The notes: generated from the letters alone by a model not told the origin. DNA of 64,000 bases from an uncultured Gammaproteobacteria bacterium (GCA_965230895.1 OZ246394.1:1313887-1377886); one strand, 5' to 3'. Shown: positions 31,319-37,569, counted from the stretch's first letter. Translations and numbers: made by a program.

Positions 31319-31630
31319 TTATTTCTTTTGTTGAGGTGGTGAGCTTTTCTGCCCAGGGCCTATTTCTTCTATTAACAATGTCTCAATGCCGAGAAACACA
31401 TGGACTTCATCTTTTTTAACCTTCATAACTGCTTGCTCAATTTTTAATTCCTTTACTTTCTGCTTCTGGTTATAAACATCTAATTGTGTGTGGATAATAG
31501 AGATGAAGTTCGCATGTTGAGGGTAAACATCGAACTTACCGACTTCATTAAACGATGTAATACGCTCAGCTTCGCCTTCATAAATGATGTTTTCGGTGTC
31601 TTCAACAATTACTTTAAGGGGGACTGACAT
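31319..31630 (-). CDS. atpC: F-type ATP synthase epsilon subunit
   Basis: A 103-aa protein that is the last gene after atpD. The N-terminal beta-sandwich-like sequence (KVIVEDTENIIYEGEAERITSFNEVGKFDVYPQHANFISII) fits epsilon. Confidence 0.7.
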   Translation of the reverse strand: MSVPLKVIVEDTENIIYEGEAERITSFNEVGKFDVYPQHANFISIIHTQLDVYNQKQKVKELKIEQAVMKVKKDEVHVFLGIETLLIEEIGPGQKSSPPQQKK

Positions 31631-31672
31631 ATTGTTAGGGTATCACGAAGCGAATATGGTGTACAAGCTTTA

Positions 31673-33157
31673 TTACGGCTTTTGCTGATCTTGTGGACTT
31701 GCTGATGGTTGCGTTTGCTGTTGTGTATTTTCAGGTGAACCAGAAAGTCTTTCTTTCTCAGCTAATTTTTGCTTTGCTGCAGTAATTTTTTCCTCAACAT
31801 CTTTGAGGGTTCCAATATACAATAAGTCTTCTGGTTTAAGAATATCTGCTTTTCCGTTTAGTATTCCACGGACATCTGCTACAGTATCTTTAACTGAAAC
31901 GAAAACACCTTTTTTCTCGGTTTGTTGCTCAACGACAGTAAAATTCTGCGTCATGAAGTTTTTTAACATTTTTGCGCGTTTATACACGGTTTGGTCTTCT
32001 GTCGAAAGTTCTGATTCTCCAATAAGTGCTACGATACGTTCTAGTGCAGTGGCTCGCTTCAATAACGATTGAGCATCAAGTGCTGTTTGGTAGTGTTCTT
32101 CACCAACTGTATCGACGTTTAACGCTGAAGAGTTTGATGCAAGAATATCAATAGCAGGGAAGCGCCCTTGCTGGTAAACCGCACGAGAAAGAATGAGGCC
32201 AGAATCTAAGTAAGGGAAGATAGCTTGTACACCACTATCTGTCAAATCGTCGGCTGGGACATAAATCGCTTCAAAAGTAGTGATGGCATTCTTCTGTGTA
32301 GAAACAAGTCTTTCATGGAAGGAAGCCATTTCAGAGGCTAAAGTGGCTTGGTATCCACCTTCTGATGGGATAGCATTCATAAGCGTTGATAATTCATATC
32401 CAGACTGAGCAAAACGAAAGATATTATCGATAAAGAACAATACGTCTTTACCCATACTGTCTCGGTAGTATTCAGCTAAAGTAACGCCTGTAAAAGCTGT
32501 ACGGAATCTGAGAGCAGGGTTTTCGCCCATACTACCATAAATAAGACTGACACCTTGCATAACTTTACTTTCAATAAGGGTTTGGTACAACTCTTCACCT
32601 TCACGAGTACGTTCACCAACACCGGTAAAGATAGATACGTTTTTCTCAGGATTCAAGATAACCAAGTTGTGGATGATTTCAGAAATGATAACGGTTTTAC
32701 CTACACCAGCTCCTCCAAATAATCCTACCTTTCCACCTTTCACAATAGGGGTGAAGAAGTCGACGACTTTGATACCTGTTTCAAGAATATCTTTTGGAAT
32801 TGTGACATTATCAAAACTGACATCTTTTGCGATAAGTGGACGAGTTTCTTTTGTTTTAATTTCGCCTTGACCATCTTGTGGTTCGCCTAATGTATCTACA
32901 ACTCGTCCAAGCATTTCCGGACCTACCGGAATTTTAATTGGTTGACCTGTACTTATGACAATTGATCCATGATGGAGGATACTCGTGTGTGTTAACGCCA
33001 GACAATAAAAAGAAGTAGGGGAGGCAGAAGTATACACTTCCATCTTAAGTGTTGGATCATCTTTATGGACTAAAACATCATAGATATGTGGTTTCTCATC
33101 GAGAAATTCAACTTCAATAATTTGTCCTTTTACACTGATAACTTTTCCTTCAAGCAT
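31673..33157 (-). CDS. atpD: F-type ATP synthase beta subunit
   Basis: P-loop [12 protein letters not shown], and the ...[14 protein letters not shown]... and ...YVPADDLTD... motifs of F1 beta. Length is 494 aa. Confidence 0.95.
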
Positions 33158-33172
33158 ATATCTATTTTATCG

Positions 33173-35555: not shown

Positions 35556-36083
35556 TTAATTATGTGCTGGTTGCTGCTGCTCTTTTGACGCTTCTTTTTC
35601 AGGTTGTTTTTCCACTGAATTTGTCATCATCTGTTGGACAATCTTATCGAAGAGCGGCTTGATAGATCCATCAACAAACTTTCCTTTATATTGTAATTTT
35701 GCTCCAGCAATCAAATTTGTATCAACCGTAACTTCGAGTAACATTTGCTTTTTTATATTCATGAGGAACCATTCTGAAAGTGCTTGAAGTGTTTTTTCTT
35801 TCGGCTCAAAAGCAATTGTCATACTGAGGACGGGGAGAGTATTGATGGTCGTTTGTATTTTTGCAAAGAACTTTTTTAGATCAGCAGGTGATTCAGGATT
35901 TATTTTGTTATCTCGAAGTAACGTCATAAACTTGTCTTTCTTTTGGATTCCAAATTCGTCAAGCAAAGTGCCTTCCAAGTTGAAATTCGTTTCATACACC
36001 TTGGCCGAAATTCCAGCCAATCGTTGGTTGAAATCCATTGCTTGCGCTTTGGTCTTAAAAAATGATGATAAATCGAGTTCCAT
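35556..36083 (-). CDS. atpH: F-type ATP synthase delta (OSCP) subunit
   Basis: A 175-aa protein whose C-terminal motif NLIAGAKLQYKGKFVDGSIKPLFDKI matches the conserved region of delta/OSCP. It is positioned between atpF and atpA. Confidence 0.75.
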   Translation of the reverse strand: MELDLSSFFKTKAQAMDFNQRLAGISAKVYETNFNLEGTLLDEFGIQKKDKFMTLLRDNKINPESPADLKKFFAKIQTTINTLPVLSMTIAFEPKEKTLQALSEWFLMNIKKQMLLEVTVDTNLIAGAKLQYKGKFVDGSIKPLFDKIVQQMMTNSVEKQPEKEASKEQQQPAHN

Positions 36084-36718
36084 TATTCAAACATGCCTTC
36101 CCGTTTTGCTTTATCGAGTGATTCGATAAGAAGTTTTTGATGTTCTTCTGTAGAGATAGATTTATTCAGAACATCTTGTGCGACTTTTTGTGTAATGCCT
36201 TTTATCATTTGTTCGGTTTGCTTAATACGTGCTTGCTTATATTCAAGCAGTTCACGCTCAAGAGCGGGGAGCATATCATCTTGAAAATGCAATGCTTGCT
36301 TATGTAATCCTTCTTGCATCTCTTTCGAAATAACTTTGAAGTCTTCTAACGATTGATCGGTAAGCTTTTTCAACTCATGCTGGTATTTGTCTCGATAGCT
36401 TTGCGCAATATTGCTTGTGTCTTTGACAATATCGGTTTCCATTTTCTGCAATGATTGGTCAACAGAATCTTTGGAGGTTTGTGCCACAAATTGTGTTTCA
36501 GATATAATTTGACTCGCTTCGGATGTCGCATCATCAAGGATTTTGCGTTCTTTATTTAGCGCATCATCAACAACTTTATGATATTCAGTATCTGTCTTCT
36601 TCTCTCGCTTTTCCAAATCTTTTTCTCTTGAATAGAGGCGCATCATGTAGTAGCCAACAAAGAGGAACAATACCAAATCGGCTGTTAAAGACATGGCTTG
36701 ATAGAATGTGGGCAGCAT
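36083..36718 (-). CDS. atpF: F-type ATP synthase b subunit
   Basis: An N-terminal TM helix followed by a long charged coiled coil. The gene is immediately upstream of atpH and overlaps it by 1 nt. Confidence 0.65.
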   Translation of the reverse strand: MLPTFYQAMSLTADLVLFLFVGYYMMRLYSREKDLEKREKKTDTEYHKVVDDALNKERKILDDATSEASQIISETQFVAQTSKDSVDQSLQKMETDIVKDTSNIAQSYRDKYQHELKKLTDQSLEDFKVISKEMQEGLHKQALHFQDDMLPALERELLEYKQARIKQTEQMIKGITQKVAQDVLNKSISTEEHQKLLIESLDKAKREGMFE

Positions 36719-36762
36719 AGTTATCTTATTTTAGCAGAAATCGGGAAGCTTTGACGCTTGGT

Positions 36763-37569
36763 TTATAGCCTCAAAATTAAGAATGAAACAGTCATTCCTG
36801 CAGCAACGATGATGACAACAATTCCAACATTAAACATAATTCCCAAATGGATAATACGACTTGCTGAGGGATTTCTTCCAAGAGCTTCCACCCCTTTTGC
36901 TGCAGTTCGCCCAAAAGTCATGAATGCAAGCACAAATGAGGCGATGACTACGAGTGCTGCAACAATATACTTGAAAAGTGGTGTTGGACCATCTTTTGTC
37001 GGAAGCAAAGCAAATTTGAAGATATCGGTCAATGAACCAGGAAATGTTGGTTTTGCATTGAAGTAGTGAAGATTAAACTCGACTGCAATCAATCCTGCTT
37101 CTGTTTGATTTGAATTGACGTAATCTTCAAGCGCAGTTCCAAGCACATATCCATCTTTAACTGCTTTTACTCCAACTCCTGGAATCGTTGATGTCGCGAT
37201 AAGATCACCTTTTTTAATTGGGCCTTCCTTATTTGAAACCAACACATACACTGTACCTACAGAAATGACTGGGACACCATTTTCAGTCGCACTATTATTA
37301 AGGATTATGCCTGCATCACGTGAGACAACTCCCATAACTTGAGCATCATAGGGGATATTGGAAAGGACATTACCTTTGTCAGATGAAGAGATAATACTTC
37401 CATCTTTAACATTTTTGACGCTGACATCTACCATTCTGGCGACACCGAGTGTGCCTGCACCTTGTACTGATGATCCTTGAGCATGTGCTTGCGGAACAAT
37501 TGTAATGAAGAGTGATAGGAGAGGTATAAGTATCAAGAGTGTTGATTTTATGAGTGAGGCAGAGAACAT
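36763..37569 (-). CDS. Secreted, membrane-anchored protein of unknown function. It has a signal peptide ending AHAQ, a soluble domain of about 170 aa, and a C-terminal TM hairpin.
   Basis: It is co-directional with atpF and 44 nt upstream of it. The C-terminal 70 aa superficially resemble an ATP synthase c subunit (GVEALGRNP loop between two hydrophobic helices) but lack the essential carboxylate. Confidence 0.5.
   Translation of the reverse strand: MFSASLIKSTLLILIPLLSLFITIVPQAHAQGSSVQGAGTLGVARMVDVSVKNVKDGSIISSSDKGNVLSNIPYDAQVMGVVSRDAGIILNNSATENGVPVISVGTVYVLVSNKEGPIKKGDLIATSTIPGVGVKAVKDGYVLGTALEDYVNSNQTEAGLIAVEFNLHYFNAKPTFPGSLTDIFKFALLPTKDGPTPLFKYIVAALVVIASFVLAFMTFGRTAAKGVEALGRNPSASRIIHLGIMFNVGIVVIIVAAGMTVSFLILRL

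Follow-up and report, generated by a model that had tools for sequence, protein, structure and literature searches.

What does an F-type ATP synthase operon do if the genes for its ion-conducting parts are not beside it and a different membrane protein stands in their place? This question is raised by a 64,000-nucleotide stretch of DNA deposited under the name of an uncultured Gammaproteobacteria bacterium (GCA_965230895.1 OZ246394.1:1313887-1377886), here called the window. On its minus strand lie the genes atpF-atpH-atpA-atpG-atpD-atpC, and directly upstream of atpF is a gene for a protein of 268 amino acids (aa). An earlier note, made from the sequence, had described this arrangement at positions 31319-37569. 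Its coordinates, strand and gene order, the 268-aa open reading frame (ORF) and the 44-nt gap between this gene and the b-like gene (atpF) are all reproduced by a list of the window's ORFs.

The answer proposed here, for which the case is about evenly balanced, is that the operon encodes a derived F-type rotary ATPase, present throughout the Microgenomates and in some members of candidate division WWE3, that is unable to use the canonical H+/Na+ mechanism and is probably driven by ATP, with an output at the cell surface.

A c-like protein with an external domain

The gene in the atpE position (36763..37569, minus strand) encodes a signal peptide, an ectodomain and a c-type hairpin in a single polypeptide. 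An AlphaFold model of this protein, built with 37 diverse homologues as input, has a predicted local distance difference test score (pLDDT) of 87.6. From the N-terminus it comprises a signal helix (residues 4-24) and a beta domain (41-170), then a linker, poorly ordered and with one short helix, and finally a helical hairpin (196-232/234-267). The signal peptide, soluble domain and C-terminal hairpin read from the sequence in the earlier note are thus borne out by the model.

The signal peptide (aa 1-30; 37480..37569, minus strand) ends at a predicted signal peptidase I site between AHA and QG. The sequence context fits such a site, and A30 and Q31 are almost invariant in the family. It is followed by an extracytoplasmic beta domain of about 135 aa (aa ~38-172; 37054..37458, minus strand), whose fold matches phage domains, and by the hairpin (aa 196-268; 36766..36984, minus strand), which is recognised by profile, hhalign and Foldseek comparisons. 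The loop of the hairpin predicted to be cytoplasmic reads G226-V-E228-A-L-G-R232-N-P234. In every c subunit the termini are outside and the loop is inside. The modelled topology of the 268-aa protein fits this pattern: once the signal peptide is removed, the N-terminal domain and the C-terminus would be outside and the RNP loop inside.

Judged by profile and model comparisons, the 268-aa protein is a real, highly derived c subunit and not an unrelated protein. Both the alignment of the C-terminal hairpin with c subunits and the structure-based search that the earlier note had suggested find this relationship. With hhalign, the family matches eight canonical c subunits at E 1.9e-4 over 67 columns that cover both helices. 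With Foldseek, the hairpin superposes on more than 30 F-type c chains, with target-normalised template modelling (TM) scores of 0.75-0.87 and root-mean-square deviations of 1.3-2.2 A. The NCBIfam model for subunit C aligns with residues 200-254 (E 0.047), and six of the eight matches of the family profile among all PDB sequences are c subunits (best E 0.044). Many homologues are named COG0636 (subunit c/K) by JGI, and one from WWE3 is called 'ATP synthase F0 subunit C' by NCBI. Pfam does not recognise the altered c subunit.

The gene had been described as 'not atpB/atpE', with a hairpin that 'mimics' a c subunit. This stands in so far as neither a canonical a nor a canonical c subunit is encoded here. 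It does not stand for the hairpin itself, which the COG0636 assignments, the PDB profile search, hhalign and Foldseek identify as a diverged homologue of c.

Loss of the carboxylate

The hairpin sequence quoted in the earlier note is present in the protein, and its second helix indeed has no Asp or Glu. In every alignment, the canonical carboxylate of E. coli (D61) falls opposite V252. To cover the family, 332 distinct hairpins from 269 database proteins and 80 genomic loci, with identities to the window protein down to about 30%, were aligned to the family hidden Markov model (HMM). Position 252 is V, I, L, G, A or F, with Asp or Glu in none of the 332 hairpins, and the core of the second transmembrane helix is essentially without acidic residues across the family. 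The loss of the carboxylate is a family-wide property.

The GxGxGxG motif is also absent from the first helix, which in the window protein reads YIVAALVVIASFVLAF; only pairs of small residues in a small-xxx-small spacing are conserved, for example S211/G215. Two polar positions within the membrane stand out. S211 is Ser in 276 hairpins, and N247, in the second helix and five residues cytoplasm-ward of position 252, is Asn in 318 and His in 12.

The most conserved stretch of the whole c-like protein is the cytoplasmic loop (of 332 hairpins: G226 in 323, E228 in 296, G231 in 328, R232 in 330, N233 in 331 and P234 in all). In canonical enzymes this loop touches gamma and epsilon. Its conservation therefore argues that the c-like protein still docks onto the central stalk of F1.

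The F1 and stalk genes

Downstream of the c-like gene, and all on the minus strand, follow genes for a b-like peripheral stalk subunit (211 aa; 36083..36718), delta or OSCP (175 aa; 35556..36083), alpha (493 aa; 34072..35553), gamma (297 aa; 33173..34066), beta (494 aa; 31673..33157) and a short epsilon (103 aa; 31319..31630). All use the standard genetic code and have no internal stops.

The five F1 subunits are recognised by Pfam and NCBIfam. Delta matches PF00213 (OSCP, E 3e-7) and gamma PF00231 (E 2e-24). Alpha matches ATP-synt_ab at E 8e-68; its top NCBIfam match is the F0F1 alpha model, at 405 bits and under the cut-off of 484. Beta, which ends in a low-complexity tail, matches ATP-synt_ab at E 2e-62 and passes the cut-off of the atpD equivalog (483.7 against 462.85 bits). 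Its catalytic motifs are intact in the translation (P-loop GGAGVGKT, GERTREG and Walker B), and the arginine of the SVTRVG motif is visible in alpha. Epsilon matches PF02823 (E 9e-9) with its N-terminal beta-sandwich alone, the C-terminal helical domain being absent.

The 211-aa protein has no match in Pfam, among PDB sequences or with Foldseek, for which its model, a single long helix, is uninformative. It is accepted, with this caveat, as a putative b-type stalk. It has an N-terminal membrane helix and a predicted continuous helix of 185 residues, it gives weak NCBIfam matches to b/E/H stalk subunits (E 7e-4 to 7e-3), and in the loci of relatives its gene always lies between the c-like gene and delta.

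Of the features of an F-type enzyme, then, alpha, beta, gamma, delta, epsilon and the c fold are present. The carboxylate of c and an operon-encoded subunit a are not.

Are subunit a and a canonical c encoded nearby?

Could the missing subunits lie nearby in a less obvious form? Subunit a was sought by phmmer with E. coli AtpB (identical to PDB 5t4o_K), a probe that finds the PDB a subunits of Acinetobacter, mycobacteria, Bacillus PS3, chloroplasts, Chloroflexus, Paracoccus and mitochondria and is thus reasonably sensitive. Canonical c was sought with an HMM of eight canonical c subunits. Neither subunit was found in the six-frame ORFs of the 64-kb window, in agreement with the earlier statement that no atpB or canonical atpE lies beside the operon, and neither was found with the same probes within 10 kb in 80 loci of relatives or in a set of 88 loci.

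The sole multi-pass membrane gene of the window is that for BacA. In 80 loci of relatives, ORFs with at least four predicted membrane helices were listed, and ten neighbouring ORFs (nine listed) were scanned with Pfam. A divergent subunit a among these neighbours was rejected: they are a PilD-type peptidase A24, EamA and multi-pass TPR proteins or have no match, and none is ATP-synt_A.

Distribution and gene order

The family comprises 599 clusters at 90% identity (E <= 1e-3) and 377 representatives at 50% identity (E <= 1e-30). Scanning one genome per GTDB species gave 80 loci, with about 20 kb read for each relative. Most of the informative record titles belong to Microgenomates (Levy-, Ames-, Woese-, Roizman- and Daviesbacteria), and three to Saccharimonadales/Saccharibacteria; WWE3 was added by a second protein search. 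Many other records that bear the operon are titled 'uncultured Gammaproteobacteria', 'Candidatus Sulfotelmatobacter', 'Lysobacterales' or 'Methylomirabilota'. On an operon that is clearly patescibacterial, such titles look like taxonomy mislabels in TPA and SMAG assemblies.

Gene order can be compared in the 72 loci whose sequence runs on for 3 kb or more downstream of the c-like gene. The c-like, b, delta and alpha genes are contiguous (alpha within 2.5 kb) in 60 of these, and in three more alpha follows after an insertion. The complete series delta-alpha-gamma-beta-epsilon is present in 56 loci. The same order is found in CP065004.1, a 1.45-Mb sequence labelled Roizmanbacteria. Since this order is conserved, the c-like gene can be said to hold the atpE slot of the canonical atpBEFHAGDC operon. 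Together with the family-wide loss of the carboxylate, its position in 60 of 72 genomes supports the atypical Fo arrangement that the earlier note had offered as one of two possibilities. The recurrence of architecture and gene order in 80 species-level genomes shows that this is not a chance feature. The operon encodes a form of the F-type ATPase that is conserved throughout the lineage and has probably changed its function.

Some loci have additional genes between c-like and b. These encode one to six paralogous multi-pass membrane proteins of about 600 aa (L005 10887-18018, L037 10732-12540 and L045 10841-20817). Those tested from L005 and L045 have C-terminal TPR repeats, and the L037 protein has no match; the L005 insertion also holds a gene for a 1,155-aa surface protein. 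The inserted membrane proteins may modify or assemble surface proteins.

Variation is also seen in the c-like protein. In four variants of 450-540 aa (P0195, P0246, P0251 and P0267), the signal peptide is replaced by a cytoplasmic helix-turn-helix (HTH) domain, a long linker and an extra membrane helix. Such HTH-fused genes still head a b-delta-alpha-gamma-beta-epsilon operon at L091 8001-9575 and L092 1513-3087. A stand-alone 73-aa gene of the MerR family lies divergently upstream at the loci of these variants.

The ectodomain and its phage relatives

The ectodomain contains a conserved motif, GD-x-(I/L)-T-x-S-x-x-PG-x-(G/A)-(M/V)-K-A. Foldseek searches of the PDB find the capsid-decoration proteins of phages Pam3, BB1 and XM1, and a C-terminal fragment of the phi29 gp12 tail appendage (PDB 3gqh, E 1.7e-3). 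Among the predicted phage proteins of BFVD, matches include 'preneck appendage protein' (E 6e-10 to 1e-9) and tail proteins (from 2e-11), with identities of 22-29%. In Pfam, the only match is PF23982 (XM1_gp53), sub-threshold at E 0.004.

The fold is thus common to the ectodomain and to the chaperone and decoration domains of phage proteins (Peptidase_G2 of tail spikes; XM1 gp53; Pam3 and BB1). The arrangement differs: in phage fibres the domain is at the C-terminus, whereas here it is N-terminal to a membrane hairpin and its Pfam scores are sub-threshold.

The same beta domain occurs outside the c-like protein. It is present three times in a 4,272-aa fibre-like protein, and eight loci encode further beta-domain proteins beside the operon. 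One of these, a 550-aa protein at L088, matches PF11962 (Peptidase_G2, the phi29 gp12 chaperone domain) at E 2e-9. At the Roizmanbacteria locus (L096 4708-9069, CP065004.1), the opposite strand upstream of the c-like gene encodes a 1,453-aa protein that contains Peptidase_S74, a tail-spike chaperone domain; a gene for an IS1595-type transposase separates the two.

Giant surface proteins beside the operon

Beyond atpC, and on the same strand, the window holds the start of a gene for a giant surface protein of at least 9,965 aa (3..29897, minus strand), which runs off the left end. The protein begins with a MerR-like HTH domain and one membrane helix, and continues as a repetitive body rich in T, G, A, N and S. 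The GC content of the ORF is 0.44, against about 0.38 in its neighbours. Same-frame ORFs on the plus strand between 1 and 29 kb were considered as a recoded gene with an alternative genetic code; this was rejected, as they are the antisense shadow of the giant ORF.

Among the 49 relatives with enough sequence, 31 have a same-strand gene after atpC whose product starts with a homologous HTH domain and membrane helix. More distant relatives have giant ORFs of like composition divergently upstream of the c-like gene. A large gene of at least 897 aa is found in this position in a WWE3 locus (L094).

Between atpC and the giant gene is an AT-rich spacer of 1.4 kb (29898..31318, minus strand; GC ~0.34) with no convincing ORF. 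It has no Rfam match, and promoter and terminator scans gave results at the level of shuffled sequence. Such a length is unusual for a compact genome, and the giant gene may have its promoter or a regulatory region there.

Comparison with known systems

From c onward, the order of the genes (c-b-delta-alpha-gamma-beta-epsilon) is that of the canonical F1Fo operon, atpIBEFHAGDC. The two are also alike in a beta subunit above the atpD cut-off, in the R-(N/Q)-P loop and in the predicted topology of the hairpin. They differ in that the operon described here has no subunit a, no Asp or Glu in the second helix of c and no GxGxGxG in the first, a c subunit with a signal peptide and an ectodomain of about 135 aa, and an epsilon without the C-terminal helical domain.

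Hairpins without the essential Glu or Asp are known from the c1 half-site of Acetobacterium woodii and from 20 cases called 'non-catalytic' in ProAD (PMC11738941). These are rare, and they occur in mixed rings with normal c or with subunit a retained. In the present family, by contrast, the loss is fixed across a class-level lineage and is combined with fusion to an ectodomain and the lack of an operon subunit a. In the 45,555 bacterial genomes of ProAD, the 20 cases are the only F/N-type enzymes with a carboxylate-less c, and all have subunit a; incomplete subunit sets in Patescibacteria are there blamed on genome incompleteness (PMC11738941). The near-universal presence of F-type ATP synthase in Patescibacteria, which have no respiratory chain, has been called a puzzle (PMC11665869). 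Reviews discuss the enzyme of this group either as an ion-coupled ATP synthase or as one that runs in reverse. In open-access papers and bioRxiv, neither the fusion nor a regular absence of subunit a was found described for Microgenomates, Patescibacteria or the candidate phyla radiation.

Mycoplasmas have F1-like X0 ATPases (types 2 and 3, including the gliding motor of Mycoplasma mobile, MMOB1660/1670), in which F1 without a proton-conducting Fo hydrolyses ATP in association with very large surface proteins. The present system resembles them in having F1 without a proton path beside giant surface proteins. It is not one of them: the NCBIfam models for the mycoplasma F1-like and MSC_0618-0619 proteins score 372, 387, 271 and 396 against cut-offs of 600, 850, 520 and 570. 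The mycoplasma clusters also have no delta, b or c-type subunit, and their alpha and beta are separate paralogues, whereas a full F1 with b and a c-like subunit is encoded here. Identity with the N-ATPase (atpDCQRBEFAG) is likewise ruled out, since the alt_F1F0 models score 357 against 750 for alpha and 415 against 752 for beta, and the gene order is F-type.

Another parallel is the FliH-FliI-FliJ complex of flagellar and type III systems, a relative of F1 that serves the assembly of a surface structure and not the synthesis of ATP by ion coupling. Its homo-hexamer lacks the alternation of alpha and beta, and it has no c ring, delta or epsilon; here, true F1 subunits are present.

Possible functions

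How might a derived rotary ATPase of this kind work? The 268-aa protein would be exported by way of its predicted cleavable signal peptide, leaving the beta domain of about 135 aa outside the membrane. It would then assemble with the co-transcribed b, delta, alpha3beta3, gamma and short epsilon. With no carboxylate in c and no subunit a in the operon, the complex should be unable to couple rotation to ion flow by the mechanism of a-Arg and c-carboxylate, so it would run on ATP hydrolysis, as a motor and not as an ATP synthase or ion pump. The C-terminal domain that epsilon lacks here inhibits ATP hydrolysis in many bacteria. Torque or conformational work might be delivered outside the cell through a crown of ectodomains, and its target might be the giant fibre-like surface proteins encoded beside the operon. 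Some of the giant proteins carry the same beta domain, and some share the module of HTH and membrane helix with variants of the c-like protein. In the most specific form of this proposal, F1 turns a carboxylate-less c ring without ion flow, and a crown of tail-fibre type grips, turns or works the giant fibres. Such a surface machine is distinctly improbable as stated. If it exists, it would transmit rotation across the membrane without being a flagellum or a pilus, and would explain why bacteria without respiration retain an 'ATP synthase'.

Several observations weigh against a derived, ATP-driven enzyme built on this c-like protein. The sequence similarity between the hairpin and canonical c subunits is weak (E 0.04 to 1e-4), and the assignment leans mainly on fold, loop motif and gene position. 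The absence of subunit a and canonical c covers the 64-kb window and about 20 kb per relative, not whole genomes. The near-invariant N247 could belong to a non-canonical ion site. Nine of the 72 loci have no F1 genes in the 5-10 kb downstream of the c-like gene. The WWE3 gene (L094 2821-3678, JAAXWF010000001.1) stands alone, with no F1 genes in the following 10 kb, and in Roizmanbacteria CP065004.1 another c-like paralogue (IPM65_03650) lies at a distance of 18 locus tags from the first. Finally, the roughly 250 cytoplasmic residues and extra helix that the HTH variants add to each subunit are hard to fit into a ring spinning past a b stalk.

The enzyme might instead be an ordinary ion-coupled F1Fo, with its canonical atpB and atpE encoded at another site in the genome. 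In that case the 268-aa protein would have an accessory role, whether as a minor ring component without a carboxylate among normal c subunits (like c1 of Acetobacterium woodii), as an assembly factor or as an anchor with no part in catalysis. Other bacteria are known in which the atp genes are split between operons, and carboxylate-less hairpins are known from mixed c rings. The searches for a and c covered the 64-kb window and about 20 kb per relative, the c-like gene is sometimes apart from F1 genes, and paralogues of it exist. Yet about 1.5 Mb of related loci yielded neither subunit a nor a canonical c, in 60 of 72 genomes the c-like gene stands ahead of b exactly where atpE would be, and the part of the protein expected to contact F1 is its most conserved. 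Where atp operons are known to be split, b is found together with a and c; here it remains with F1. The incomplete patescibacterial sets in ProAD also fit a situation in which a and canonical c routinely go undetected in this group (PMC11738941). An ordinary enzyme with distant a and c genes is on balance unlikely. If the c-like protein is instead itself an ion carrier, it would need a non-canonical site (for example N247 with S211 and T/S218) and an unrecognised stator in place of subunit a. N247 and S211 are polar residues conserved inside the membrane, and reviews treat the Patescibacteria ATPase as ion-coupled. No rotary ATPase is known to move ions without a carboxylate in its c/K ring, and N247 lies five residues cytoplasm-ward of the mid-membrane position. 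The neighbourhood encodes no conserved multi-pass membrane partner, and ProAD calls c subunits of this kind 'non-catalytic' (PMC11738941). A pump or synthase with such a site is very unlikely.

Alternately, the c-like protein may not rotate. As a static membrane platform that docks F1 in the manner of FliH-FliI-FliJ, it could aid the export, unfolding or assembly of giant surface proteins. This is consistent with the conserved linkage to giant proteins with an HTH domain and a membrane helix, a module that some c-like variants share; with the bulky cytoplasmic additions of those variants, which argue against free rotation; and with the homology of F1 and type III ATPases, seen in NCBIfam cross-matches. 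But true rotor and stator parts of F1 (gamma, epsilon, delta and b) are retained together with a c loop of the kind that binds gamma and epsilon, and no export-gate components are seen nearby, so that a platform must be considered decidedly improbable. The missing subunit a and carboxylate, in reduced genomes, could also be taken as signs of a decaying, functionless remnant. This explanation is rejected as scarcely credible, since all seven genes and the catalytic motifs are intact, and order and sequence are conserved down to about 30% identity, which implies purifying selection.

Taken as a derived F-type ATPase, the system suggests that the 'ATP synthase' of these ultra-small bacteria is probably not an enzyme that uses a proton gradient to make ATP by the familiar route. 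The 'incompleteness' of the Microgenomates ATPase looks systematic: its altered c subunit goes unseen by Pfam, has no proton-carrying residue, bears an external domain and is not accompanied by subunit a. If this is correct, metabolic reconstructions would be wrong to assign gradient-driven ATP synthesis or proton pumping to these organisms, and an F-type rotary motor would have been re-used for a different task, probably at the cell surface. It would be the second such case after the F1-like ATPases of mycoplasmas, and the first to retain a c-type ring.

Other genes in the window

Two genes upstream of the c-like gene are probably outside the core system, as homologues are found beside the operon mainly in close relatives (L001-L004, L009 and L010). 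One (37603-38352, minus strand) encodes a secreted protein of the CAP/YkwD family with a linker rich in Pro, Thr and Ala. The other (38445-39746, minus strand) encodes a 433-aa protein with no family match.

Further away, a gene for tRNA-Ile with anticodon TAT (50682-50755, minus strand), which is uncommon in bacteria, adjoins a gene for a Xer-like tyrosine recombinase (49736-50620, plus strand). A back-to-back pair of tRNA genes with anticodon CAT (53187-53391) is found about 2.5 kb from this tRNA gene.

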